Virus record (IMG/VR): IMGVR_UViG_3300028610_001991
Source of the DNA: a virus
Strand: one strand, 5' to 3'
Length of the DNA stretch: 64,000 bases
Each line of letters starts with the position of its first letter. The stretch's first letter is position 1. Of the stretch, positions 14,210 to 60,103 are shown one piece after another. The notes below the pieces were generated by a model. The model saw nothing but the letters and a program-made list of their open reading frames with translations. It was not told the DNA's origin and made no database searches. A program made the position numbers and the translations under genes.

Positions 14210-15592
14210 ATGGCCGGTAAAATAAGGTATATTAGAGATCGTGTTAACGGTAGTAATGCAAGTGGTGGTAATTATTGGGTGGAGATAGAAGTATATGACG
14301 AGGATGGAAACAATATTGCTCTGGGTACATCTGTTTCTGTTAGTCCTGCTTATGGTGGGAGTGGAACTAACCTAGCCAGACTTACAGATGGAAATTTAGA
14401 TACAGCGCAGTATGGCTCTATTAGTGGTGGATCAGGCGGGAACGGGGAGATACAGATTGATTTAGGAGGATTGTATCTTGTAGCTTATATAAAGGTATGG
14501 CATTATTACGGGGATAAACGAAATTTTAATAGTAAACGAACACAGGTATCTGATAACGGATCTACCTGGATAGATATGGCATTACCTGGAACAGGTAGTT
14601 ACCAGGAGCATAGTGGTGGAACAGTAATTAGAATACCATCTGTTTATTTTGATTTAATTCCTGTACATAGTCATAAAGATGCTGAATCTTCTGATGTAAC
14701 AGATGCGATCAAAGCATTGCGTCAGTCTATGTCTCAGCGGTTTGGTAGTATACCTGATTTAGGGGCTCAGTATAATATAGGAAATGATATTAAGGAAGGA
14801 ACGACACTAGGTACTATAAATACAAAATTAAAGGCAGTGGATGCTTTATATGGGTGGGATGTAGATCCTCCTAATAAATTTGAATATGATGATATTCAAG
14901 GTATGCTTTCTGAGACGGATAGGATTTCTAGTTTAACAGAGTGTAGTTCAGACTGTTCTAGTTTATGTAAAAATAATTGTTCAAATAGTTGTTTTGGTAT
15001 ATGTAAGGATTTATGTATAGTTGGTTGTGGTGATGGGTGTGCTGCTGCCTGCAGTACACCCTGTACTACAAATTGTTCAACAGCATGTTCAGGTTGTGGT
15101 GTGTCTTGTGCGATAGGGTGTGGGGCTGCTTGTCAGAGTAGTTGTGGTGGTTCTTGTGAATGGGGGTGTGTTGGTAATTGTGATACTCAGTGTGGTGTCT
15201 GTGATGTTCATTGTACGGCTAATTGTTCGGAGGGATGTCGTAGTTTTTGTGATGCTGGTTGTGGGGTTGTTTGTGATGGTGGTTGTGGTAGTACTTGTGC
15301 CCATTCTTGCTATACTGGATGTAAGGACTATTGTGAACTTTCGTGTGGGGCACAGTGCTACGCTGCTTGTGCAAATGGTTGTGGGACTGCTTGTGCTTCA
15401 GGGTGTGGTGCTTGGTGTGACGGTGGTTGTTCTTCTTCATGTGCAGGTAATTGTTATGCTGCCTGTGTAGCTTATTGTGGTACAATATGTCAAACTAATT
15501 GTGGAGGTTTATGTTTTACATCGTGTTTAAATTGGTGTACAACAACTTGCGGAGATGAATGTTCAAATTACTGTTATGGATCGGCGGTATGA
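14210..15592 (+). CDS. Discoidin (F5/8 type C-like) domain fused to a 54-Cys CXXX-repeat tail; predicted radical-SAM substrate
   Basis: The N-terminal IRYIRD…WVEIEVY…TDGN…IQIDLG…YIKVWHYYGD…VSDNGSTW segment is a phage-tail discoidin-like domain. The last 216 aa contain a Cys every fourth residue (54 Cys counted). Confidence 0.85.
   Translation: MAGKIRYIRDRVNGSNASGGNYWVEIEVYDEDGNNIALGTSVSVSPAYGGSGTNLARLTDGNLDTAQYGSISGGSGGNGEIQIDLGGLYLVAYIKVWHYYGDKRNFNSKRTQVSDNGSTWIDMALPGTGSYQEHSGGTVIRIPSVYFDLIPVHSHKDAESSDVTDAIKALRQSMSQRFGSIPDLGAQYNIGNDIKEGTTLGTINTKLKAVDALYGWDVDPPNKFEYDDIQGMLSETDRISSLTECSSDCSSLCKNNCSNSCFGICKDLCIVGCGDGCAAACSTPCTTNCSTACSGCGVSCAIGCGAACQSSCGGSCEWGCVGNCDTQCGVCDVHCTANCSEGCRSFCDAGCGVVCDGGCGSTCAHSCYTGCKDYCELSCGAQCYAACANGCGTACASGCGAWCDGGCSSSCAGNCYAACVAYCGTICQTNCGGLCFTSCLNWCTTTCGDECSNYCYGSAV
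14942..15589 (+). repeat. Cys-Xaa-Xaa-Xaa protein repeat (54 units, 12-nt period)
   Basis: Runs CSSD CSSL CKNN … CGDE CSNY CYGSAV. Only two units are CXX (CSG, CGV). Confidence 0.97.
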
Positions 15593-16854
15593 CGGAAACA
15601 CATAAAGATTTTATGGTTATTTCTAAAGGTAACTGGTCTAACGACTATGCATCTATGTTTGGTGGAATAAGTATGCCTAAGTCTATATCTATTCAAGTTA
15701 CTGAAAGATGTAATTTAAGATGTACCTACTGCTATTTTTATAAGAGGCGCGGTAAAGATATAACATATGCTATTTTAGACAAAATAATTAGTATGGTGTA
15801 TACAAACCCTTTTTTTAGTGACACGCCTTCCTTTATATTTGATTTTATAGGAGGGGAGCCTTTACTGGTGAGCGATAAGTTACAGTACTTTATAGAAAAT
15901 TACTATAAAGAAGGCTTAAAGAGAAACGTTAAGAATATACAAAAATTGTATAGTACTCGATTCTCCATGTCTTCTAATGGGGTGTTATATTTTTCAGATA
16001 AAACTAGAAGTTTATTAAAAAGGTATGCACATATAATTAGTTTTGGCATTACTCTTGATGGTTCTCCCGAGATGCATAATAAATGTAGAATTTATCCAAA
16101 TGGTGATGGTTCTTATGCCGATGTAAGAAAAGCTGTAGATGAACAATTAAAATATAATAAAGGTTTATCCAGTAAGGTTACTTTTTCGGTGGACAATATA
16201 CATATGCTATACGATGCTATAAAACATCTAATAAGTATAGGCATTAAAACAATACACGCTAATCCTGTTTTTGAAAAAGGATGGAAAATAAAACATGCAG
16301 AAATATATTATGATGAATTAATAAAATTAGCTAATTATATACTAAATAATGATTTGGAAAATAAAGTGGATGTTAATTTATTTACACAAAATATCGGAAA
16401 ACCAATGGATGAACGTGAGAATAGTAATTGGTGCGGAGGTACAGGTGCGATGTTAGGCATAGGTTTTGATGGTAGTATCTACCCATGTGCTAGATATTTT
16501 CCAACAGCTCTAAGTAAATATAAGCCACCTGTAATAGGAAATGTTTTTGATAATAAAATTGATTGGGCATGTAATAAGGTAACAAAAGGTATTGATAAAA
16601 TAACTCGTAAAAGTCAGTCATCAAAAAGATGTTGGGAATGTTTAGTTGTACAGGGATGTGCTTGGTGCTCCGCTTATAATTATGATTATTATGGTATAAT
16701 TAATAAACGGACAACTCATATTTGTAACATGCACAGAGCTAGGGTAAGGGCTAACTATTATTATTGGAATTCAGTTTATCAAAAATATAATATGGATACT
16801 GAGTTTATTCTTTATCCGTGTGAATGGGTTGAAGATCCTGAATACGGATACTAA
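15589..16854 (+). CDS. Radical SAM/SPASM peptide maturase, CXXX-repeat target family (TIGR04115-like)
   Basis: CNLRCTYC SAM-cluster motif, GGEPLL and SLDG-like TLDG motifs, and SPASM cysteines NWCGGTGAM…IYPCARY…CWECLVVQGCAWCSAYNY…ICNMHRAR. The likely start is the ATG at 15589, overlapping the substrate stop (ATGA). Confidence 0.9.
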   Translation: MTETHKDFMVISKGNWSNDYASMFGGISMPKSISIQVTERCNLRCTYCYFYKRRGKDITYAILDKIISMVYTNPFFSDTPSFIFDFIGGEPLLVSDKLQYFIENYYKEGLKRNVKNIQKLYSTRFSMSSNGVLYFSDKTRSLLKRYAHIISFGITLDGSPEMHNKCRIYPNGDGSYADVRKAVDEQLKYNKGLSSKVTFSVDNIHMLYDAIKHLISIGIKTIHANPVFEKGWKIKHAEIYYDELIKLANYILNNDLENKVDVNLFTQNIGKPMDERENSNWCGGTGAMLGIGFDGSIYPCARYFPTALSKYKPPVIGNVFDNKIDWACNKVTKGIDKITRKSQSSKRCWECLVVQGCAWCSAYNYDYYGIINKRTTHICNMHRARVRANYYYWNSVYQKYNMDTEFILYPCEWVEDPEYGY

Positions 16855-38109: not shown

Positions 38110-39081
38110 ATGGATTTAAATTGGGAAAAGCCTGACTACGGGAATGGTGTTTCTTCAATAATTTATAAATCGGAATTTGTATATAAGAAGCAACCTGTAG
38201 GGATGCAAAAACGAGAGCTTGAATTTTTAAATATACTTTACCCTTATGGATATATACCGGATTATAAGATTATATCTGAGGAGATAATTGAATTCAATAG
38301 AATTTATGTAGATAAGGTTACAAATGAAGATGAATTTTTATCACATTATGATAAGTTTTTAAGTATACTCAAGAAGAAAAATATAAGACACGGAGATCTT
38401 ACTTCGGCTAATATACTACCTTATAAAAACAAGCCTTATATCTTGGATTGGAATGAGAGTAGGTATTACAGTGAAAATTTATCGGATAAAAGACCGGAGA
38501 AAGATGCTTTTTGGTTTTGGAGATCAATGGTATACTATATAGATATATCTATATATCCTCTGCCAGGTAACGGACGTGGGCCTGAGATGTGGTATATATT
38601 GAGGGATCATGTATTAAATCCAGAGTACAAGACAGTTATAGACCTTGGGTGTGGTAGAGGTGATTTTAGTATACGTTCATTGATGAATGGAAAACAAGTA
38701 AATATGGTAGATTTTGATGAGGGGCAATTAAATATAGGGAAAGAAAAAATAGAGAAGAGGGGCCTTACTAATGTTACATATTACATTGAAAATATACTTG
38801 ACTTTATTAAAAGAGATATTCAGTCGGATATACTGTTTTGTTTTTCTGTTCTTCCTTATCTTAGTAGAAGTGATATGCTTGAAGTAATACGCTACGCAAA
38901 AAAGTTTAGTAGATTTTCATTTTTTGAGATACAATATACAGGGGATGGTCCTGGATATATAAAAGGGGATTCTGAAATTATAGATATTTTTAAGCAATGC
39001 GGGTTTATACATGTAGAAAAGATAGGATTTACTACTGTGGAGTACAGAAAAAAAGATAGAATTATCTGGAGGTGTACATGA
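38110..39081 (+). CDS. Kinase (RIO/Bud32-like) – class I methyltransferase fusion
   Basis: N-terminal IRHGDLTSANIL…YILDW catalytic loop; C-terminal VIDLGCGRG SAM-binding motif. Confidence 0.75.
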   Translation: MDLNWEKPDYGNGVSSIIYKSEFVYKKQPVGMQKRELEFLNILYPYGYIPDYKIISEEIIEFNRIYVDKVTNEDEFLSHYDKFLSILKKKNIRHGDLTSANILPYKNKPYILDWNESRYYSENLSDKRPEKDAFWFWRSMVYYIDISIYPLPGNGRGPEMWYILRDHVLNPEYKTVIDLGCGRGDFSIRSLMNGKQVNMVDFDEGQLNIGKEKIEKRGLTNVTYYIENILDFIKRDIQSDILFCFSVLPYLSRSDMLEVIRYAKKFSRFSFFEIQYTGDGPGYIKGDSEIIDIFKQCGFIHVEKIGFTTVEYRKKDRIIWRCT

Positions 39082-39896
39082 CATTGGTACTAATACATTT
39101 CGGGGAAAAGATACCCTATGCTGAACAGTGCGTTTCTGCTATTAAAAAAGTCTCTAATATAGTTATTCATTGGATAGCTGAGTACCCTATCGAGGGAGTA
39201 GAATCTTTTGATATAAATAAATACTCTATGGATGATTACTGTGCTTGGTTTAACGGCCATAATAATTTCTTAAGATGTTCCGGGGACCTCTGGAACTATT
39301 CCCTACAGAGGTTTTACATACTATACCTACATTGTTATGCACATAGCTTAGAATCAGTATTACACATTGAGAATGACCAAGTAGTTTATTATGATCCTTT
39401 GGGTATTGGGGGTATATTAAAGAAGAGCGATAAGTTATTAGCATTAGATCTCGGACCAAAATATGCGTCCGGAGCAATAATGTACTTTAGTAATATAGGT
39501 TTACTATATAATATGAATCAGGAAATTAATAAGTGTTTGATTAAAGGTGATGCATGGATAAAAAAGACGATGAACTTATGTGAGATAGAGGTATCTTCAG
39601 AAATGGTTATTTTAAAGTACTTATTGATGAATAATATTATTAAATCGCTACCTTTATTTCCAGAAGATTCAGATGAGTATGGTTATATATTTGATCCGGC
39701 AAGTTACGGACAATATTTTGGGGGTACCCCTGCAGGTCATTCTCCGGGTACATTATTTGAGCATCATTATATAGGTAAGAGGATTAAAGAGACAAATGAG
39801 AAATTAAGTATGATAAGGGGTAAGCCATACTTTAACGATACACCTATATTTAACCTGCACATACATACAAAAAAATTGCAAGATTTTATTCAATGA
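39078..39896 (+). CDS. Putative glycosyltransferase-like protein
   Basis: Motifs LHIEND, FDPASYGQYFGG and IFNLHIHTK, a pattern seen in viral glycan clusters. Starts at an ATGA overlap. Confidence 0.45.
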   Translation: MTLVLIHFGEKIPYAEQCVSAIKKVSNIVIHWIAEYPIEGVESFDINKYSMDDYCAWFNGHNNFLRCSGDLWNYSLQRFYILYLHCYAHSLESVLHIENDQVVYYDPLGIGGILKKSDKLLALDLGPKYASGAIMYFSNIGLLYNMNQEINKCLIKGDAWIKKTMNLCEIEVSSEMVILKYLLMNNIIKSLPLFPEDSDEYGYIFDPASYGQYFGGTPAGHSPGTLFEHHYIGKRIKETNEKLSMIRGKPYFNDTPIFNLHIHTKKLQDFIQ

Positions 39897-40534
39897 CATT
39901 TTCATTCCATGCTATGAAAAGAAGTGGGCATCATGCTGTTATCTATTGGGTAGCAAAACATTTACCTTATAATGTTATCCCTAATAGTTGTGGTGCTTAC
40001 TTCCCTGAGGAGTATTGTAATAAAGGCTTTAAATTTACTGTTGAATTTTGTGATTATGAAGATTATGAAGTACGCACTGAGATACATAAAAGATTTACAA
40101 GTATACTAGTAATGAGAGACCCATTTAATTTATTTGCTAGTCGAGAGAAATTAGCTGAACATAAAAAAATGGATGGATTATCTACAGGTGTACTCGACTT
40201 GTATGAGGGTCAGATAAAAGCCATGTCTGCTTTTTCATTCATTATATTTTTTAATTACTGGCTTGAAAAAGAAAATAGAAAGATAATAGGAAAGATGTTA
40301 GGTTGTGATAAAAACTGTGAGGAGCTATACACTGGGATATCGAAAGAGGGATGGGGTAGTAGTTTTGATTTATTAAAGTATCAGGGGGATCCTCTGAAGA
40401 TGGCTTTAACTAAAAGATGGAAATATTTAAGTAAAGGCAGGCTGGAGAGAATATTAAAAAGAAAGGTAATTTACCATTTTGCTGAAACTTATTTTAGTGA
40501 ATTATTAAACGATGTACTTGAGTATGTAGGGTAA
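39893..40534 (+). CDS. Sulfotransferase-like protein
   Basis: AMKRSGHHAVIYW resembles the 5'-phosphosulfate-binding loop, and LVMRDPFNLFASR resembles the 3'-phosphate-binding motif. Confidence 0.6.
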   Translation: MTFSFHAMKRSGHHAVIYWVAKHLPYNVIPNSCGAYFPEEYCNKGFKFTVEFCDYEDYEVRTEIHKRFTSILVMRDPFNLFASREKLAEHKKMDGLSTGVLDLYEGQIKAMSAFSFIIFFNYWLEKENRKIIGKMLGCDKNCEELYTGISKEGWGSSFDLLKYQGDPLKMALTKRWKYLSKGRLERILKRKVIYHFAETYFSELLNDVLEYVG

Positions 40535-41845: not shown

Positions 41846-42443
41846 TTTTGTATTTGATCTGTTTAACTATAACAGAGGAGTCTATGTAGAGGCTGGAGCA
41901 AATAATGGTATTTCACAAAGTAATACATATAGACTGGAGAGAGAAAGAAATTGGTCAGGAATGTTGATCGAGCCTTCTTTAATAAGCTTAAATAAATGTA
42001 TTGAAAGTAGAGGTAAGGGAAACATATTTGTTAATTGTTGCTTAGTGGCGGATAATTACGGGAAGAAATATATACATGGTGATTTTGACGGGCATTTGAT
42101 GGCAAGTGTGGATGGTAAACGACTGAAACGGGGACGGGATATAAAGGCATTAGCGCAAACATTAATGAGTGTAACAACTAAGTATAAGTTTTTTAGTGTG
42201 GATCTGTTAAGCTTGGATGTAGAGGATTACGAGGTACAGGTTTTAGAGGGGGCTGATTTTAATGTATTTAAACCAGAGTATATAATAATTGAGATTCATA
42301 TAAACCATTTAGGTACAGTTAAAGGACAGCTATTGAAAAACTATAAATTTATAGGTAATATAACTAATTATAATATAAAGGATAATCCTTTTTGGGATCA
42401 AGCTCATGATGATTATTTATTTAGAAGGAAGTTAGATGAATAA
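41832..42443 (+). CDS. FkbM family methyltransferase
   Basis: Motifs YVEAGANNGISQSNT…MLIEP…VDLLSLDVED. Confidence 0.8.
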   Translation: MNLSDFVFDLFNYNRGVYVEAGANNGISQSNTYRLERERNWSGMLIEPSLISLNKCIESRGKGNIFVNCCLVADNYGKKYIHGDFDGHLMASVDGKRLKRGRDIKALAQTLMSVTTKYKFFSVDLLSLDVEDYEVQVLEGADFNVFKPEYIIIEIHINHLGTVKGQLLKNYKFIGNITNYNIKDNPFWDQAHDDYLFRRKLDE

Positions 42444-43371
42444 AAACTCAAAAGTATATGTTGCAGGGCACACAGGCCTTGTTGGTTCTAATTTGATAAA
42501 GGCTTTATATAGCAGAGGCTATAATAATATTATTTATTATACGCATAGGGGTTTAGGGGGTTTAGACTTACTTAACCAAAAAGAAGTAACAAATATGTTT
42601 GATACGCAGCGACCAGAATATGTATTTTTATGTGCGGCTCGGGTAGGAGGTATTAAGGCTAATGATGACTTATGTGCTGATTTTATCTATGAGAATACCA
42701 GAATTCAAATAAATATAATAAAGGCCTGTCATGACTATAAAGTTAATAAATTGTTATTTCTTGGTAGTTCCTGTATTTACCCTAAAAGTGTAGACACACC
42801 TATAAAAGAGAGTTCTTTACTGGAAAGCGTACTTGAAGAGACTAATATAGGTTATGCTATTGCTAAAATCAACGGAATAAAGATGTGTCAGTTATTTAAT
42901 AAACAGTACGGCGATGTTTTTATTTCTATTATGCCTACGAATCTATACGGTAGAGGTGACACGTATGACCTACAGAAAGGTCATGTATTTTCAACCTTAA
43001 TTATGAATATCCATAAAGCTAAGGTGACAAACGCACCATGTATAGAACTATGGGGCTCAGGGAAACCTTTAAGGGAGTTTTTATTCGTAGAGGATTTTGC
43101 TGATGCTCTTATATTTTTAATGAATGACTACAGTAGTCCGGAAATAATAAATGTAGGCACAGGTAAAGACATTCCAGTTTATGATTTGACTAAATTGATG
43201 TGCGTGATAATTGGATATGAAGGGAAAATTGTTTTTGATTCTTCAAAGCCTGACGGCACGTATAGAAAGGTTATGGATGTATCAAAAATAAATAGTTTAG
43301 GCTGGGAGGCCAGCACTTCTCTAAGAGACGGAATAATTAAAACATACCAATATTATCAGGAGACTTTATGA
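42436..43371 (+). CDS. fcl: GDP-L-fucose synthase
   Basis: Motifs [55 protein letters not shown] and KPDGT. Confidence 0.93.
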
Positions 43372-44339
43372 AAGCATTTATTACAGGTATTACCGGCCAG
43401 GACGGATCCTACCTTGCTGAATTATTACTTGAAAAAGGGTATGAGGTACATGGACTTATTAGGAGAGCCGCTTCTTTTAATACAGGGAGAATAGATCATA
43501 TTTTCGATAAATTACATTTACATTTTGGTGATCTCACAGATGGTTTAAATATATTTCATTTGATACATAAGATAAAACCTCAAGAAATTTATAATATGGG
43601 TGCGCAATCTCATGTACGTGTATCTTTCGATACCCCTGTCTATACGATTAATACTATTGTTCAGGGGATTACTCATATATTAGAGTCAGTTAGACAAATT
43701 GATTCATCAATAAAAGTATATCAGGCTTCTAGCAGCGAAATGTATGGTGGAGTAGAAGAAGTACCGCAGTCAGAAACAACTCCTTTTTACCCACGTAGCC
43801 CTTACGGGTGTGCTAAAGTTTTTGCTTATCACCTCTCACGGAACTATAGAGAGTCATATAGTATGTTTGTATGTAACGGTATTTTATTTAATCACGAGTC
43901 GGAACGAAGGGGAGATACGTTTGTTACTAAAAAAATAACTAATTATATAAAGCTAATTCGTAAGTGTGATCACTGGTTTGATAATACGCCGGAATATATT
44001 ATAAAAAATATAGGTAAGTTAAAGTTAGGAAATCTTGATGCTAAACGAGACTGGGGGTATGCTCCTGATTATATGGAAGCTGCTTGGCTGATGTTACAGC
44101 AGCAGGAACCCGATGATTATGTAATAGCTACAGGAGAAACGCATACAGTAAGGGAGTTTTTAGAGATAGCATTCGCTCACGTAGAAAAGGATTATAAAGA
44201 CTTTGTTGAAATTGATCCTAAGTATTTTAGACCAACCGAAGTTGACACATTATTAGGAGACTATACTAAAGCTTGTAATAAGCTAGGATGGAAACCTAAG
44301 ACTACTTTTAACAAACTAGTAAGAAGGATGATAAAATGA
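43368..44339 (+). CDS. gmd: GDP-mannose 4,6-dehydratase
   Basis: Motifs [49 protein letters not shown] and [11 protein letters not shown]. Confidence 0.95.
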
Positions 44340-45145
44340 ACAAGACACTATTTTTTACAGGATTATCCGGGAGCGGTAAGACAACACTGGCTTTAGCATT
44401 AAAGGATAGGCTCGATGCTGTTTTACTGGATGGAGATATATTAAGAAAAGGACTCAATAAAGATTTGTGTTTTTCAAGAGAAGACAGGTGTGAAAATATA
44501 CGTAGAGTTATAGAGCTATGTAAACTTTTTAACGTTAACGGTAGGGACGTAATAGCCGCCTTTATTTGTCCGTATGAGGATTTAAGAAAAGCTGCCCAAA
44601 AAGGTATAGATAGCTGTTTTATTATTTACTGTGAGTGTAGTATTGAGGAGTGTGAGCGTCGTGATCCAAAAGGGCTGTATAAAAAAGCTCGTGCAAGAGA
44701 TATAAAGTATTTTACTGGAATAAGTAGTGTCTTTGAGAAACCAAAGTGCGCTAATATTATTGTTAATACAGAAAAATATACAGTAGACGAATGTGTTAGT
44801 CAAATTTTATTAAATGTAGATAATAATCAGCATCTTTGTTTTATCGGAAGATGGCATCCTCTACATGAAGGACATAAGCATATAATGAAAATAAAATACA
44901 AAGAGAAGGGGTTACCCCTACTTATCCTTGTACGTGATACTCATGAAGCAATGTCTGCTTATAAAAGAAAACATTTAATTGAAAAATGGTTTGCAGAAGA
45001 AAATATTCAAGGTAAAGTAGTTATTATACCGGATATTGAAGGTGTATACTACGGTAGGGGTGTTGGTTACAATATAGAACAAATAGAAGTCCCGAAGGGT
45101 ATTGCTGATATATCAGGTACAAAGATACGAGAGGGATTAGTATGA
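44336..45145 (+). CDS. cysC: Adenylylsulfate kinase fused to a HIGH-type nucleotidyltransferase domain
   Basis: N-terminal [17 protein letters not shown] and RRDPKGLY (APS kinase); C-terminal [12 protein letters not shown]…ISGTKIR (cytidylyltransferase-like). Confidence 0.85.
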
Positions 45146-45888
45146 TACCAAAACAAATATTTACATATTGGGAAGGTATGTCCTTCGATTATATCAAGTA
45201 CTGCTTTAAAACAATTGAAGAAAGATCTGAGTGTAAGTTATTTAAATTAAATCCAACAAATATAGATGAGTATATAGATGGCTCAGGATTAAGTAGAAGA
45301 TGGAAATGTTTAAAGATTATATCTCAAAAAGTTGATTGTTTGAGGGCAGCCCTTTTATACAATAACGGAGGTATGTGGTGCGATGCAGATACGGTATGGC
45401 TTCATAAAATACCTGAGGAATTATTTCAGAATGATCATGACATTTGTCTTTTAAAGTGGCCAAGCGGTATTATCCTGAACGGTTATTTTATAGCTAAGAA
45501 AAACAGTGTTTTTTTACAGAAGGTGATTGAGAGAATTAACACATACTTAAGTGACGGACGAACTAAATATCCAGAGAATGGGTTTGTTTTATTCGGAGAA
45601 ACTGTATTTAACGAAGTAGCTCAGCAATATCCGGATTTAGTTAATATATTACCAACCGATATTTTTCTTCCTGTTGAATTTCAATTTAATCCTAGGATAT
45701 GGGAAGTGAAGAAAAAGATAAATGAGTTTATTAAACCAGAAACATTATGTATTGGTCTTAGCCATTCAACCAATTTTATTTATTCTCGTAAGTCTGTGTA
45801 TCAGGCTGTGAGTATCTTAGCTAATCAGGACAATTTATTCGGAGATATTTTTAAACATTCTATAAACTTAGGCGAAGTAAATTCTTGA
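45142..45888 (+). CDS. DXD glycosyltransferase (GT32 / capsular polysaccharide synthesis-like)
   Basis: Motifs [10 protein letters not shown]…KVDCLRAALLYNNGGMWCDAD. Confidence 0.8.
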   Translation: MIPKQIFTYWEGMSFDYIKYCFKTIEERSECKLFKLNPTNIDEYIDGSGLSRRWKCLKIISQKVDCLRAALLYNNGGMWCDADTVWLHKIPEELFQNDHDICLLKWPSGIILNGYFIAKKNSVFLQKVIERINTYLSDGRTKYPENGFVLFGETVFNEVAQQYPDLVNILPTDIFLPVEFQFNPRIWEVKKKINEFIKPETLCIGLSHSTNFIYSRKSVYQAVSILANQDNLFGDIFKHSINLGEVNS

Positions 45889-46711: not shown

Positions 46712-49153
46712 ATGCCGGAGATTACTCTAACTGTTGATAATTTAATTCGTATCCCATTTCTTTTATCAGATCAATTAATTTCTATGATCAAAAAACGATT
46801 TACAAAAAGAAATCCTGTTTATGATCTGCAGCTTGCGATGGCGTATGGTAAGCCTACGAAAGTGACAGTCCCCAAAATAATTATATCGTGGTGTGAAAAC
46901 GAGAAATATTTAATGATACCCAGGGGGACAGGTAAGTATGTGCGGAACTTGTTAGAAGAACACGACTATACTGTCCATATAAATGATCAAAGGGTATACA
47001 CTACTAAATTCATAAAGTTTTATCCTAAGCCAGGGTGGGATCTGAGATCTCATCAGAAAGAAGCGAGAGATGTTTTAAATAGCCATGAGCAAGGAGTCCT
47101 GGAGAGCCCGTGCGGCGGAGGAAAAACGTTATCCATGATAATGAATATAGCAGATAAGCGGCAGCCTAGTATTATTATAATGCATAAGAAAGATCTGATA
47201 AAACAGTGGATGAATGAAATTAACGATAAGTTTATTTTAGAGGAAGGCGCTATAGGTACTATTGCAGAGGGTATTTTTAACCCACAGGTTATAACGCTGG
47301 CCTTAGTTCAAACTATGATTAATTTAACCCAGCAACAGTGGGCGCGTATACAAACAATTTTTGGGATGGTTGTTGTCGAGGAATGTTATGTTGAAGGATC
47401 TCGTGTTACCATGAGGGACGGTACATCAAAGACTATTGAAAATGTACATAACGGGGACAGAGTATATCTAGGTGGAAAAGTAAGTAATTACTTTAGCAGA
47501 GAAGCAGAGGGTTATTACTATATACGAACAAGCATAGGGCCCTTAAATTGTACAGAGAATAATGTATGTAAGGTTGTACAAAGACAGAGAGATAAAAAAA
47601 ATAACCAATATTACGCTTTTGATCCAAAGACTGATATACGAGATAAATTAGCGAGGGACATTAAAAAAGGGGATTTATTTTATACACCTGTTTGGTACGA
47701 TTTTCACGGTATGCTTGGATGCCGTGGTAATTTTCCTGCACTCCTAGCAGCTATTTTAGCAGACGGTAGTATTTCTAAGTGTAGAATTAGGATTGAGGTT
47801 GTTAAAGAACGGAAAGTATTAGCGTTTAAAAAGTTATTTAAAAAATGGAAATTTCGTTTTAACCCAAAGAAAAAATCGTATATTTGGTGGATAAATAGTA
47901 AAGACGAAGATTATTATAGAATAAAAAAAGAGATACCCTTTGTTGGTAAAAAATCGGATAAGATATTTATTCCTGAATGCATTTATGAGGGTAACCTTGT
48001 TGTTAAGTATAAGTTTTTACAAATGCTTATACTTTGTGACGGTCACATATATCCTAACTGTGTAGATTACTACACTACATCTTATCGGTTTGTTTATGAT
48101 TTATTATTATTACTTAAACAGGTTGGTATTTACGCCACGGTTATAATGTGTAAAAAAAAGAAACAGTTTCACAATACTAGGTATAGTGTACGAATCGCAG
48201 GAAAATTAAATCTTGAGAAATTAAATAACATGCATAGAGCAGGGTATACTTTTAAAGAAAGGGATGTATGTAATCAAGGATATTCGATTGACTACGATTA
48301 CCATCATGTAAAAGTTCTTGATATAAAGTGGGTTAATAAAAAAGTTATGGTTTATGATTTTACTACTGAAACTCACCAGATAGTTGTTAACCATATGATT
48401 CATAAAAACTGTCACCATACACCGGCTGAAACATTTTTATATTGTGTAAATAAATTTCCTGCTAGGTTCAAGTATGGCGCGACAGCTACGCCCACCAGGA
48501 AAGATCATCTGGATTTTCTTTTGTTCGATTTTGTAGGTGACATCTTATATTGTATCCCTGATATAGAATTAGAGGCGCGAGGGATTACTATGAAAGCTCA
48601 AGTTCAAAGAGTTATAACAGAATATTTTTATGACTATACAGGCCCCCATTGTTGGGTTTTTATGGTTACAGAAATTACTAAGGATGAGGATAGAAACGAA
48701 ATAATTATTCAGACAGTAGCCGAAGATGTTAAGCAGGGAAACTTTGCGCTTGTGCTGTCTGATAGAATAAAACACTGTAAATACTTAGCTGAAAGACTAT
48801 CTGCATATAATGTTACAGTAAGATTATTAATCGGTGATAAAAGTACTGAGGAAAGGGAAACAATACGCCAGGAATGTTTACGCGGGGAAGTAGATGTACT
48901 CATAGGCACTACAGTAGCTGATGAAGGAATGGATATACCTAACTTAAATTCACTACATTTAACCTGTCCCTCAAATAATGAGGGTAAATTAAAACAAAGA
49001 TGTGGTAGGGTTAAGCGCAGTATAGCTAATAAAGATATGCCTACTATTTATGACTATGTAGATCATAACATAGATAAATGTTGTAAGATATGGTGGAATA
49101 GAGAAAAGTGGTATATGAAATGGGATTTTAAACTATTATATACGGAGGGTTAA
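46712..49153 (+). CDS. SF2 (DEAH-type) DNA helicase with intein
   Basis: SPCGGGKT (motif I), VVEE|CHH (motif II split by the intein), GATATP, IGTTVADEGMD and QRCGRV. Confidence 0.9.
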   Translation: MPEITLTVDNLIRIPFLLSDQLISMIKKRFTKRNPVYDLQLAMAYGKPTKVTVPKIIISWCENEKYLMIPRGTGKYVRNLLEEHDYTVHINDQRVYTTKFIKFYPKPGWDLRSHQKEARDVLNSHEQGVLESPCGGGKTLSMIMNIADKRQPSIIIMHKKDLIKQWMNEINDKFILEEGAIGTIAEGIFNPQVITLALVQTMINLTQQQWARIQTIFGMVVVEECYVEGSRVTMRDGTSKTIENVHNGDRVYLGGKVSNYFSREAEGYYYIRTSIGPLNCTENNVCKVVQRQRDKKNNQYYAFDPKTDIRDKLARDIKKGDLFYTPVWYDFHGMLGCRGNFPALLAAILADGSISKCRIRIEVVKERKVLAFKKLFKKWKFRFNPKKKSYIWWINSKDEDYYRIKKEIPFVGKKSDKIFIPECIYEGNLVVKYKFLQMLILCDGHIYPNCVDYYTTSYRFVYDLLLLLKQVGIYATVIMCKKKKQFHNTRYSVRIAGKLNLEKLNNMHRAGYTFKERDVCNQGYSIDYDYHHVKVLDIKWVNKKVMVYDFTTETHQIVVNHMIHKNCHHTPAETFLYCVNKFPARFKYGATATPTRKDHLDFLLFDFVGDILYCIPDIELEARGITMKAQVQRVITEYFYDYTGPHCWVFMVTEITKDEDRNEIIIQTVAEDVKQGNFALVLSDRIKHCKYLAERLSAYNVTVRLLIGDKSTEERETIRQECLRGEVDVLIGTTVADEGMDIPNLNSLHLTCPSNNEGKLKQRCGRVKRSIANKDMPTIYDYVDHNIDKCCKIWWNREKWYMKWDFKLLYTEG
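47384..48409 (+). mobile_element. Intein (342 aa) with LAGLIDADG homing endonuclease
   Basis: Begins CYVEGSRVTMRDG, has AILADG and LILCDG motifs, and ends VYDFTTETHQIVVNHMIHKN followed by Cys. Removing it restores VVEECHH. Confidence 0.9.
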
Positions 49154-57909: not shown

Positions 57910-58500
57910 ATGGAAGAAAAAACAGTGAAAGAGATAATTGCAGAGGTTGATGAGTCTATAGAAGGTTATATTAAGTACCTCAAGGAAAAGCATGAAGAGT
58001 TTGAAACAAAGTTTAATGTGTTAAAGGAGATCAAAAGTCAAGTAGGAACTAATCAGATTAAGACAATTAATCCTGATCGCCTTATTTTAGTCTGTGCTGA
58101 TTATCCTAACATAGCGGACTGGTTTTTAACTGAGTACGGTATAGTTACAAAAAGATTAACAGAGATGGAAGAAGTTTATGTTAAATGGTATGGCCCCAGA
58201 GCTAACTACGCTGAAACAGAAATGCAGAAAAATAAAGAGCATATAACACAGGCTACCATAAAAACTAAAGTTTCAATACTGTATGCTACTGAGTACAAAG
58301 ATTGGCAGAATGAGTTATTAAAAATGAAGGTTGATAAAGAAATGTTAAAAGAGAGACTTAAAATAATTCATGATGCGCGATACTCTTTAAATACGCTGTC
58401 CATCCTGCGTCCTATATGGGATGTGGCTACCAGAGGTGATGCTCCCGTTGACGCTAATATGATAGACGCAGCAGACAATGAAATGAAAAACAATAAATAA
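57910..58500 (+). CDS. Coiled-coil protein, possibly a UvsY-like recombination mediator
   Basis: Helical and heptad-rich, upstream of SSB and RecA. The function is inferred from context only. Confidence 0.4.
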   Translation: MEEKTVKEIIAEVDESIEGYIKYLKEKHEEFETKFNVLKEIKSQVGTNQIKTINPDRLILVCADYPNIADWFLTEYGIVTKRLTEMEEVYVKWYGPRANYAETEMQKNKEHITQATIKTKVSILYATEYKDWQNELLKMKVDKEMLKERLKIIHDARYSLNTLSILRPIWDVATRGDAPVDANMIDAADNEMKNNK

Positions 58501-58519
58501 AATAATTAGGAGGATTTTA

Positions 58520-60103
58520 ATGAAAACAGTAAATGGTTTTACTTATGAACAACTAAAACTTGCAGGATGGACTGACGAAGTAATAAAAGGACATCCTGTG
58601 TACAAAGCTTTTTTTGAACCTGAATCAGCTCCACAGGCATCTGATGCGACACCTCAGGTTGTAAAAGGGGATGACAGATCCACTTTGAGTAAAGGAATGC
58701 ATTCGTCGGATGATATGCAGGGAGATGCCTCTAATGTTCAATTTGGCGGTCCAAAGTTTGAATCTTGTGTAGTAGAGGCTAATAACCAGAAAACAATGAG
58801 ATTTAAAGGTCCTTACACCAGATCAAGAAAACATTGGATAGTGTGTGATGATGGAACAACTAGGCCTTTTAATTGTGGTTACGTTGAAGATGGAGGAAGA
58901 TGTATAGTAGAGGATGTTACGGATCCTCTGATTGGCGAAGATTCTTATGAGTTAAAGGCTGATCCTAATGTTCATGTATTACCCGGACAGAGACCGGCAA
59001 AGAAAAGACATTACAAATGGAAAGAATATAACCCTACCCTTTTAGCAGAATTACTAGGAGAGGGCGCAGCTAATGCAAATTCATGGTATTCCAGGGAAAT
59101 GTTTCTTTTTAATACAATTGATAGGGATTCTGTATGGTGTCAAAAAAATAAACATACAAAAATACTTTGTAAATCAGATAAAACAATAGGGATAGGCTCA
59201 ACTCTTTTTATTGAGATAAATAACCAAGCCAACGTGCATGGTAAGTATTTTACTTTTGATTATGTTATTGGTAAACAGGGTAGCGGTAGAAATACTAAGT
59301 ATTCTGCTACAGTTGCTCCGGGAGAGAATGCCAAGAATGCTTTAACACCAGAGGAAGCGGCATATGAAACATACGATTTATCTTCTTTTATAATACCTGC
59401 TGCTGAAAAATATATACTAGAGAATCTGGCGCAAAAGTTTAAACTGGTAATAGACTTTTGTAGAAAGATGAAGATTATTACCCAAAAACAAATAGAGGTA
59501 GAGAAAAGATTATACGCAGAAGGTTATCTTACAGATGACGGTTTAACAACGGCTAATTATACCCCACCGAGCCCTGCTCCCACGGATACACCTGTATCAC
59601 CTGCACCTGCACCTGCACCTGCAGCAGAAGTAGTAACAGAGACACCGCCTCAGCTTGTTAATACAGCTTCAGATGCTTCGCCTGTACTACCATATGCCCC
59701 GCCTGTACCACCAGAGGCTCCACCTGCACCACCAGCTGCTCCAGTTGCTTCATCTGCTCCAGTTGCTTCATCTGCTCCGCCTGCACCACCAGCTGCTCCG
59801 CCTGCACCACCAGATGCTCCGCCTGCACCATCAGAGACTCCACCTGTTGCTCCAGTTGCTTCAGCTGCTCCGCCTGTGCCTCCAGATGCTCCATCTGCAC
59901 CACCTGTACTGCCAGCCCCAGAAAAAACTGCTGCTGCACCGCCACCTCCTTCTGCTCATGTATCATCGGCTTTACCAGTAGCAGAAGAGCTTCCTATAGA
60001 TGTATCTGAACCGCCGGGAGTTCAATGTCCTTCATGTAGAACAGTTAGTGGATTAAATGAGACGGCGTGTAAGAACTGTGGAGGAAAACTAACACCATTT
60101 TAA
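58520..60103 (+). CDS. Putative single-stranded DNA-binding protein with Pro/Ala linker and C-terminal zinc ribbon
   Basis: gp32-like core (…FNTIDR…DYVIGKQGSGRNTKYS), adjacent to recA; ends CPSC…CKNCGGKL. Confidence 0.6.
   Translation: MKTVNGFTYEQLKLAGWTDEVIKGHPVYKAFFEPESAPQASDATPQVVKGDDRSTLSKGMHSSDDMQGDASNVQFGGPKFESCVVEANNQKTMRFKGPYTRSRKHWIVCDDGTTRPFNCGYVEDGGRCIVEDVTDPLIGEDSYELKADPNVHVLPGQRPAKKRHYKWKEYNPTLLAELLGEGAANANSWYSREMFLFNTIDRDSVWCQKNKHTKILCKSDKTIGIGSTLFIEINNQANVHGKYFTFDYVIGKQGSGRNTKYSATVAPGENAKNALTPEEAAYETYDLSSFIIPAAEKYILENLAQKFKLVIDFCRKMKIITQKQIEVEKRLYAEGYLTDDGLTTANYTPPSPAPTDTPVSPAPAPAPAAEVVTETPPQLVNTASDASPVLPYAPPVPPEAPPAPPAAPVASSAPVASSAPPAPPAAPPAPPDAPPAPSETPPVAPVASAAPPVPPDAPSAPPVLPAPEKTAAAPPPPSAHVSSALPVAEELPIDVSEPPGVQCPSCRTVSGLNETACKNCGGKLTPF
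59600..59900 (+). repeat. Coding tandem repeats of the Pro/Ala linker
   Basis: CCTGCA x4 (59600-23); 18-mer CTGCTCCAGTTGCTTCAT x2 (59736-71); 21-mer CTGCTCCGCCTGCACCACCAG about x3 (59772-59834). Confidence 0.9.

Follow-up and report, generated by a model that had tools for sequence, protein, structure and literature searches.

A viral APS kinase fused to a small NMNAT-like nucleotidyltransferase domain: a candidate minimal PAPS synthase

A 269-residue protein encoded by a virus (IMG/VR record IMGVR_UViG_3300028610_001991) joins an intact APS kinase to a HIGH nucleotidyltransferase domain of ~105 amino acids, hereafter the mini domain. From sequence comparison and gene context we propose that the mini domain is probably a non-orthologous, minimal ATP sulfurylase which, with the kinase, would form the smallest known synthase of PAPS, the universal sulfate donor, and feed a glycan-sulfation cluster of the phage. 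Two types of enzyme, Sat and CysDN, are currently credited with sulfate activation, and it seems fairly likely, if a shade less so, that this ~105-residue, NMNAT-derived domain, which would combine with APS kinase into such a synthase, stands for a third class of ATP sulfurylase that arose independently.

Results

The gene lies on the plus strand of the 64,000-nucleotide stretch of DNA that was analysed (the window), part of a 187-kb phage contig, where the ATG-started open reading frame spans exactly 44336..45145. Its start overlaps the stop of a gmd-like gene upstream (ATGA), and the start of a glycosyltransferase gene directly 3' (Caps_synth / DXD motif; 45142..45888, plus strand) overlaps its end by 4 nt. 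The gmd-like gene (43368-44339) and an fcl-like gene (42436-43371) form a GDP-fucose pathway pair (42436..44339, plus strand; PF16363, PF01370), which is directly 5' of the fusion gene and translationally coupled to it. The idea that the open reading frame arose by chance fusion or faulty assembly was rejected, since the identical protein is present on three contigs from different samples. No related cultured phage was found for the window by megablast.

By its scores, which lie beyond the equivalog cut-off, the N-terminal domain (residues 1-160; 44336..44815, plus strand) is a bona fide APS kinase. The Pfam APS_kinase model (PF01583) matched residues 3-143 with an E-value of 1.7e-46 and 158.5 bits against a cut-off of 21.1, and the protein scored 170.2 bits with the NCBIfam apsK model TIGR00455 (cut-off 138.7) and 172 with NF003013 (cut-off 163). 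The set of APS kinase signatures is complete, all on the plus strand: GxxGxGK[ST]T as the P-loop GLSGSGKTT at residues 9-17 (44360-44386), DGDxxR within LDGDILR at residues 31-37 (44426-44446), the FSxxDRxENxRR site at residues 46-57 (44471-44506) and the lid KGLYKKA..FTG at residues 109-129 (44660-44722), with the FISP of APS kinases replaced by FICP. In the AlphaFold model of the protein (pLDDT 95.1), the kinase part superposed on the kinase domains of human PAPSS1/2 with an rmsd of 1.2-1.4 Å and 42-44% identity, and Foldseek recovered the APS kinase fold (E 9e-16) with matches to 2ofw, 7yq1 and 5cb8 at a TM score (by target) of 0.78-0.90 and an rmsd of 1.1-1.4 Å. As the domain is a true APS kinase, its substrate APS needs some source.

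The mini domain (residues ~166-269; 44831..45142, plus strand) has a reduced NadM/NMNAT-like fold of three strands and a loop, as judged from the profile match to 1f9a and from VIA-align. A preliminary description of this DNA had reported a CysC domain fused at 44336-45145 to a ~105-residue domain with HPLHEGH and ISGTKIR motifs, and the PF01583 and TIGR00455 matches together with the motif coordinates confirm it. RWHPLHEGH belongs to a 12-residue stretch at residues 169-180 (44840..44875, plus strand) that provides the HxGH nucleotide-binding motif, and ISGTKIR at residues 259-265 (45110..45130, plus strand) is the second HIGH nucleotidyltransferase signature, common to NMNAT and Sat. Across 95 aligned relatives R172, H177, H180 and S260 are invariant, and T262, R265 and R200 are conserved in at least 90%. 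R200 is at the end of strand 2 in the family-specific VRDTH (44930..44944, plus strand), where NMNATs have IGSAQ in the 1f9a alignment, and R241 lies in the family-specific loop YGRGVGY (45050..45070, plus strand); both are near-invariant arginines, new relative to NadM-type NMNATs. In MJ0541 (1f9a) the segment from strand 3 to GYEV, which we take to hold the nicotinamide/NMN-binding residues of archaeal NMNATs, comprises 33 residues, in place of which the mini domain has 8, a net loss of ~25.

Comparisons of sequence and fold place the mini domain nearest to archaeal NadM-type NMNATs, not Sat. The best match of the domain profile in the PDB was 1f9a (E 1.4e-16), and 1f9a was also the closest fold by VIA-align (Z 10.2, rmsd 2.1 Å over 102 residues), followed by PPAT (Z 10.1), with Z 8-10 to NMNAT, PPAT, CCT and Sat of the HIGH superfamily. 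The predicted structure does align to Sat, with 108 of 110 residues matched to Thermus thermophilus ATP sulfurylase 1v47 at Z 8.0, but 1f9a is nearer. HxGH and ISxTxxR on a Rossmann-like fold, by which the PF01467 clan is defined, are present, and Pfam assigned PF01467 (CTP_transf_like) in 66/95 relatives. The NadM motifs GRxQPxHxGH and SGTxxR are found as well; the NadM models scored 17.7 bits against a cut-off of 127 (NF002243) and 13 against 181 (TIGR01527). The isolated domain, modelled with a pLDDT of 92.4, gave no Foldseek match at E≤1e-3, and phmmer with the single domain against the PDB returned only noise, with RAD54B at the top.

Likeness to Sat is limited. Neither PF01747 nor TIGR00339 matched the window protein at E≤0.1, PF01747 was reached by 9/95 relatives at E≤1e-3 (best 7e-7), and P0006, a relative from Gottesmanbacteria with the nucleotidyltransferase before the kinase, could be aligned without a break to the Sat-APSK model NF004040 over the junction of its two domains. 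The Sat motif QxRNPxHxxH is absent from the window protein, where the corresponding stretch has one residue more between Arg and His, and GRDHAG is missing, its topological equivalent being IPDIEG by a low-confidence hhalign comparison of the domain profile with four Sat sequences (~12% probability, used for topological equivalences only). In place of the N-terminal PUA-like domain and ~200-residue catalytic domain of Sat there is a 105-residue domain preceded by a kinase. The mini domain had initially been suggested to be, perhaps, a stripped-down ATP sulfurylase of the Sat kind; because NadM-type enzymes are nearest and GRDHAG, the RNPxHxxH spacing and the PUA-like domain are absent, it looks like an independent recruitment inside the HIGH superfamily instead. 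The sulfurylase activity of human PAPSS1 is reported to depend on H425 and H428 of its HxxH motif (PMC11697783).

The mini domain is, by sequence similarity far beyond chance, a member of a large unannotated family. Searched alone, the C-terminal 110-residue piece matched 578 protein clusters at E≤1e-3, 137 of them at E≤1e-10, among 1.84 billion representatives, and the family further counts 232 hits in species genomes and at least 585 viral contigs; a literature search found no description of the domain or of any minimal or alternative ATP sulfurylase. PF01583 is present in 79/95 family members of at least 196 residues. The 165 loci comprise 76 fusions with the kinase first, 39 with the nucleotidyltransferase first and 36 adjacent split pairs, the latter separated by gaps of −58 to +25 nt, and the tree of the domain implies at least 21 changes of architecture. 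The domain is also kept as a separate protein of 100-160 residues adjoining cysC, and a kinase-free query found two stand-alone members, both beside an APS kinase gene. A complex prediction for a split pair from a marine Flavobacteriales genome scored 0.00, which speaks neither for nor against an interaction. Activity across the family may be non-uniform, because neither an APS kinase nor a sulfotransferase lies near some of the peripheral members: the P0030 subfamily, P0180, whose fusion partner is DHHA1-like, and the short versions carried by cultured phages (Salvo gp32, for instance). Some members without APS kinase sit in phage nucleotide-metabolism contexts.

We then consider the occurrence of canonical sulfurylases in genomes that carry the mini domain. 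Among 50 carrier genomes from many phyla, mostly incomplete MAGs or SAGs, Sat was found in 4 and full-length CysD in 7, and both were absent in 39; when truncated CysD-like genes were counted, 32 lacked all three, and a canonical sulfurylase is also present in 11-18 of the 50. One carrier is a complete 1.09-Mb chromosome of Gottesmanbacteria (CPR), which lacks both Sat and CysD and whose sole APS kinase is the fusion. A random sample of Omnitrophota (n=151) held 3 true carriers, too sparse for statistics, and was replaced by the test on known carriers and a control in Flavobacteriales. Of 121 Flavobacteriales genomes, 55 have cysC, and in 51 of the 55 it is accompanied by cysD, usually right beside it; the four with cysC and without cysD are exactly the four mini-domain carriers, which also lack Sat and have the mini domain directly downstream of cysC (51/0/0/4, Fisher p ~3e-6, uncorrected, and the four carriers may be one lineage). 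A search of five carrier genomes revealed no SulP-type sulfate permease.

Genes for the use of PAPS are found close by. The product of 39893..40534 (plus strand; 213 residues), earlier called sulfotransferase-like, stands as a candidate sulfotransferase and presumed PAPS consumer on the strength of its invariant RSGHHA and RDPFNLFASR motifs and of ESM Atlas look-alikes that carry PF00685/PF13469 (feature score 0.96, TM 0.66-0.68); it had no Pfam, PHROG or PDB-profile match, and its HH match is at the level of motifs only. In the wider family, the mini domain is surrounded by sulfotransferase and glycan genes and by a CysQ-like phosphatase. In 54 loci, sulfotransferases validated by Pfam are encoded no more than 10 kb away, and in small carrier genomes the only sulfotransferase is 2-3 kb from the mini-domain locus. 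One locus (L005) has the order cysC, mini domain, unknown, CysQ-like, Wzx, three sulfotransferases and Wzy, and in another (L083) the fusion has an ABC importer on one side and, on the other, an ABC-2 exporter with a sulfotransferase. A separate, canonical 143-residue cytidylyltransferase is present in 13 mini-domain loci.

Discussion

The fusion in both orders, the complementarity with Sat and CysD, and the clustering with sulfotransferases and a CysQ-like phosphatase strongly support a putative role of the mini domain in making APS, as the preliminary description had suggested under a different view of its origin. In the proposed mechanism, the C-terminal domain would bind ATP through HxGH (H177, H180) and ISGTKIR, while R172, R200 and R241 may hold sulfate for attack on the alpha-phosphate, yielding APS and pyrophosphate. 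The parts given to R200 and R241 are read from the alignment, not from coordinates; the new conserved arginines would suit an anion, and with 33 residues of MJ0541 reduced to 8 there is room only for a small acceptor. The N-terminal kinase would then phosphorylate the 3'-OH of APS to give PAPS, and the fusion, or tight operon coupling in relatives, may pull the unfavourable first step by channelling. The PAPS would serve the product of 39893 in sulfating a glycan, possibly the fucose-containing, methylated one of the surrounding 13-kb cluster. CoA synthase follows the same two-step logic: a HIGH adenylyltransferase (PPAT) forms an AMP conjugate, whose adenosine 3'-OH is then phosphorylated by the fused dephospho-CoA kinase, a P-loop enzyme, although the acceptor is phosphopantetheine and the kinase is of another family.

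The closest parallel is the metazoan PAPS synthase (human PAPSS1/2; 1xjq, 1x6v), which also has an N-terminal APS kinase and a C-terminal HIGH-superfamily adenylyltransferase, and whose overall chemistry, sulfate to APS to PAPS, would be the same. Its sulfurylase is a Sat-type domain of ~390 residues with a PUA-like domain, QxRNPxHxxH and GRDHAG, whereas the partner here is NMNAT-like, has 105 residues and none of these elements, and the whole protein has 269 residues as compared with ~620. The Sat and Sat-CysC enzymes (T. thermophilus 1v47, Aquifex aeolicus 2gks, NF004040) share the superfamily fold (Z 8.0 and 6.7) and ISGTxxR, and the Sat-CysC enzymes also the fusion to APS kinase; the mini domain differs by the Sat features listed above and by being one third the size. 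NadM-type NMNATs (M. jannaschii MJ0541 1f9a, M. thermoautotrophicum 1ej2) have GRxQPxHxGH with identical spacing and SGTxxR, but the mini domain lacks ~25 residues of the stretch from strand 3 to GYEV, has VRDT for IGSAQ and the new R200 and R241, and was never seen here with NAD genes and almost always with APS kinase. CysDN occupies the same slot adjoining cysC and shows a complementary distribution in Flavobacteriales, as expected of functional equivalents, although CysD, a PP-loop ATP pyrophosphatase powered by the GTPase CysN, has an unrelated fold and different energy coupling.

The resemblance to NMNAT, PPAT and cytidylyltransferases, together with the CTP_transf_like assignment in 66/95 members and the members in nucleotide-metabolism contexts without APS kinase, would also fit an enzyme that transfers adenylyl or cytidylyl groups to NMN/NaMN, glycerol-3-phosphate, phosphocholine, a sugar phosphate or a phosphonate, and that is co-located with the kinase only as both serve glycan decoration or as the kinase acts on the 3'-OH of an adenylate without sulfate. 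We consider this unlikely: the presumed acceptor segment of MJ0541 is mostly gone, the NMNAT score is far under its cut-off (17.7 vs 127 bits), the partner is an equivalog-level APS kinase, and the 143-residue cytidylyltransferase in 13 of the same loci already fills that role; the exact mutual exclusion with cysD, and the occupation of its place by cysC in Flavobacteriales, would be left unexplained. ATP sulfurylase catalyses a freely reversible reaction in which ATP formation is the favoured direction, and the same active site would bind APS, so the domain could instead tune nucleotide-sulfate pools, by recycling of the APS:phosphate adenylyltransferase/ADP-sulfurylase type, by selenate or molybdate activation or by making ATP from APS and PPi. 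Such a role appears very improbable, since it would leave the pathway hole in sulfurylase-free genomes unfilled and the presence of sulfotransferases and CysQ in the same clusters argues for a net supply of PAPS.

It is also conceivable that the mini domain is a non-catalytic, nucleotide-binding module that regulates or scaffolds the kinase, with APS coming from the Sat or CysDN of the host, on which a phage can rely; a canonical sulfurylase is indeed encoded by 11-18 of the 50 cellular carriers. The sulfurylase-like domains of Entamoeba and Thiobacillus denitrificans APS kinases act as modules of this kind. Entamoeba EhAPSK, Thiobacillus denitrificans APS kinase (PDB 3cr8) and fungal Sat with a dead kinase-like domain likewise fuse an APS kinase to a HIGH-fold module, and in EhAPSK a catalytically dead sulfurylase-like domain has lost its substrate-binding loop (doi 10.64898/2026.04.02.716029). 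The EhAPSK/3cr8-type modules, however, are Sat homologues of full size in which substrate-binding elements have been lost, and they coexist with an active sulfurylase, whereas HxGH, GR and ISGTxxR are (near-)invariant over hundreds of divergent mini-domain members and another sulfurylase is usually absent. With 32-39 of the 50 carriers, one of them a closed chromosome, offering the kinase no other sulfurylase, and the domain persisting as a separate protein adjoining cysC, a purely regulatory role seems quite unlikely.

If the mini domain is indeed a third, very small sulfurylase, it would close the holes in reduced genomes that have APS kinase and sulfotransferases and no sulfurylase, and sulfate would be activated by it in many CPR bacteria, DPANN archaea, Marinimicrobia, marine Flavobacteriales and Omnitrophota, as well as in some haloarchaea, in Chlamydiia and in hundreds of phages. 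A single-chain PAPS synthase of 27-30 kDa would also be attractive as a source of PAPS where sulfated glycosaminoglycans and drugs are made with enzymes or microbes. Viral cysC genes are currently read as assimilatory auxiliary metabolic genes (e.g. PMC10914622); many of them would then serve glycan sulfation, not sulfur assimilation, and phages would be able to carry a self-sufficient sulfation route for their own glycans or those of the host.

The fusion gene and its phage context

The APS kinase-nucleotidyltransferase fusion was confirmed where the preliminary description had placed it, as an open reading frame (ORF) of 269 amino acids at 44336..45145 on the + strand. It comes after fcl-like and gmd-like genes within a 13-kb glycosyltransferase/methyltransferase block and overlaps both the stop of the upstream gmd-like gene and the start of the downstream glycosyltransferase gene, and is therefore part of a closely packed operon. 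The window is phage DNA, with genes for baseplate-like structural proteins, a DNA polymerase, a DnaB-like helicase and a UvsX-like recombinase, and all of its long ORFs are on the + strand. The 269-residue protein occurs in identical form on three metagenomic contigs, the longest of 187 kb.

Other features of the window were also observed. A 323-aa protein of the glycan cluster (38110-39081) has a RIO-like kinase region (weak match) at its N terminus and a SAM methyltransferase at its C terminus. An 813-aa ResIII/Helicase_C protein (46712-49153) is split by a ~330-aa insert with a weak LAGLIDADG_3 match, resembling an intein that carries a homing endonuclease in a phage helicase. A composition break at 58001-60000 (GC 0.41 against ~0.34, with GC skew dropping from ~0.3 to 0.01) coincides with an SSB-like ORF (58520-60103).

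Two domains of different kinship

The kinase half matches APS_kinase at residues 3-143 (E 1.7e-46), the protein scores above the NCBI apsK equivalog cut-off, and all hallmark APS kinase motifs were found. In the AlphaFold model (pLDDT 95.1) this half overlays APS kinases from human, fungi, plants and archaea with rmsd of 1.1-1.4 Å and 38-44% identity. Judged by sequence and model, it may be regarded as a functional APS kinase, which means that its substrate, APS, must be supplied.

Residues 166-269 bear [12 protein letters not shown] and ISGTKIR. A single small-domain sequence gave weak matches to CTP_transf_like and NadM-type NMNAT, and in an exhaustive HMMER search 578 clusters matched the 110-aa small-domain piece. 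The top matches of a profile built from 52 stand-alone members (A3) were archaeal NMN adenylyltransferases (1f9a, E 1.4e-16; 1ej2), followed by PPATs, and no ATP sulfurylase was among the best 60 matches listed. In fold comparison the small-domain model (pLDDT 92.4) reached Z 10.2 with 1f9a and Z 10.1 with PPAT; the value for T. thermophilus ATP sulfurylase was 8.0 over 108 aligned residues, and those for PAPSS1 and soybean ATPS lay near 7. These profile and fold matches place the domain in the HIGH nucleotidyltransferase superfamily, and it appears to be NMNAT-derived, or to have NMNAT as its nearest likeness; the trimmed Sat proposed earlier was not borne out.

Compared with MJ0541, the M. 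jannaschii enzyme of 1f9a, 8 residues (xVxYGRxV) stand in for the 33 between strand 3 (..DIE) and GYEV, and VRDT takes the position of IGSAQ. The lost stretch presumably comprises the nicotinamide-contacting residues of archaeal NMNAT structures. Invariant or near-invariant over 95 relatives are G171, R172, H177, G179, H180, R200, P232, D233, G240, R241, V243, G244, S260, T262 and R265. By alignment, the domain appears to keep the nucleotide-binding signatures, with the large acceptor pocket gone and two new arginines, and this pattern of conserved positions would suit a small anionic acceptor.

Linkage to APS kinase and frequent absence of canonical sulfurylases

PF01583 was found in 79 of 95 family members (≥196 aa). 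Among 165 loci from species genomes and IMG/VR, a sample biased by ranking loci with the full-length query, there were 76 kinase-then-nucleotidyltransferase fusions, 39 in the reverse order, 36 split pairs (gap of -58 to +25 nt in 34 clean pairs) and 13 further loci with a kinase within 10 kb. An APS kinase gene also adjoins two stand-alone representatives retrieved with a kinase-free query. The mini-domain tree, which is noisy as the domain has only 105 aa, requires at least 21 architecture changes against a mean of 71 with shuffled labels, and it seems clear that fusions and fissions arose several times independently. Kinase-then-nucleotidyltransferase fusions from Chlamydiia and related metagenomic proteins (L003, L008, P0008-P0019) start with ~20 hydrophobic residues ahead of the P-loop that resemble a signal or anchor, suggesting that the candidate PAPS synthase is tethered to the membrane or exported.

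Fifty carrier genomes were searched, from Bacteroidota, Chlamydiia, CPR, Marinimicrobia, Halobacteriales, Omnitrophota, Planctomycetota, Acidobacteriota and DPANN. Sat was present in 4 and full-length CysD in 7, so 39/50 are without a canonical sulfurylase, or 32/50 when truncated CysD-like genes, found in 8, are counted. In these truncated genes (e.g. G006:C45:11362-12153) the match, at 190-230 bits, is confined to positions 1-205 of the CysD model's 294, and they could encode an active sulfurylase independent of CysN; their carriers (G006, G173, G182, G185, G186, G192, G194, G196) are mostly Omnitrophota or DPANN-like. On a closed 1.09-Mb Gottesmanbacteria chromosome the fusion is the sole APS kinase, and neither Sat nor CysD was found. 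As a control, 121 Flavobacteriales genomes were sampled: cysC occurs in 55, with cysD, mostly adjacent, in 51 of them, and the remaining four coincide exactly with the four mini-domain carriers, in which the domain is encoded directly downstream of cysC; Sat is likewise absent from these four. The association (51/0/0/4) gives Fisher p ~3e-6, uncorrected, and the four carriers possibly share ancestry, so there would be fewer than four independent events.

Sulfotransferases and glycan neighbourhoods

An iterated HMM seeded with one Pfam sulfotransferase retrieved 71 ORFs across 54 loci, and all ten sampled matches exceeded Pfam thresholds (PF13469 and PF00685). PF13469 is present in 30/50 carriers against 2/14 control genomes, and in small carrier genomes the distance between the fusion and the lone copy is 2-3 kb. 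Other common neighbours are sugar epimerase/dehydratases, UDP-glucose dehydrogenase, glycosyltransferases and methyltransferases. A marine Flavobacteriales locus (L005) reads cysC, mini domain, a 236-aa gene without assigned function, CysQ-like phosphatase, Wzx-like flippase, three sulfotransferases and a Wzy-like gene; in the closed Gottesmanbacteria (CPR) genome the fusion is flanked by a NitT/TauT-type ABC importer on one side and an ABC-2 exporter, sulfotransferase and glycosyltransferases on the other. From this gene content the steps of a sulfation cycle are thus all recognisable except the sulfurylase, whose place the mini domain takes. The importer in the Gottesmanbacteria genome (L083, 7449-9955) lies directly upstream of the fusion gene, has a binding protein of the NMT1/SsuA type and may bring in sulfate or a sulfonate with which glycans are sulfated; a search of this genome for a SulP permease found none.

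In the window, the sulfotransferase-like ORF at 39893 had no HMM match. Its nearest ESM Atlas clusters bear sulfotransferase families (features 0.96; structure TM 0.66-0.68), and RSGHHA and RDPFNLFASR, which appear similar to the PAPS-binding motifs 5'-PSB and 3'-PB of sulfotransferases, are invariant in its eight homologues. The assignment as a sulfotransferase is plausible, not established.

Alternative functions

The small domain could be a dead regulatory domain of the APS kinase, as has a precedent in Entamoeba APSK (doi 10.64898/2026.04.02.716029), but the conservation of the catalytic signatures and the carriers without a sulfurylase speak against this. An acceptor other than sulfate is suggested by the NMNAT-like ancestry and by peripheral members without kinase, namely the P0030 subfamily, P0180 and short phage forms of ~245 aa, and function may not be uniform at the family edges. 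P0180 (432 aa) joins the mini domain to a DHHA1-like C-terminal domain (23.6 bits, just below the Pfam cut-off), with no APS kinase nearby on its phage-like contig; NrnA-type DHH/DHHA1 enzymes hydrolyse pAp, a by-product of sulfotransfer. The short forms, annotated 'kinase', occur in Xylella phage Salvo, Stenotrophomonas phages and Clavibacter phage 33 (phrog_10255). Those of the cultured phages Salvo (L164, gp32, 15167-15913) and Stenotrophomonas phage DLP_6 (L165, AAY80_227) are shortened versions of the fusion with 27-29% identity, are without the APS kinase lid and are surrounded by early and DNA-metabolism genes with no annotated sulfotransferase; the Salvo genome also has a 'cysteine dioxygenase' gene 4 kb upstream.

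Searches of full-text literature yielded no account of this domain or of an alternative ATP sulfurylase. Viral cysC genes are treated as assimilatory AMGs (for example PMC10914622), and database labels of the family are adenylyl-sulfate kinase, kinase, cytidyltransferase-like or hypothetical. Comparative genomics gives good support to the earlier idea of the small domain as the APS-making part of a candidate minimal PAPS synthase, but the domain looks like an NMNAT-like recruit, not a reduced Sat.
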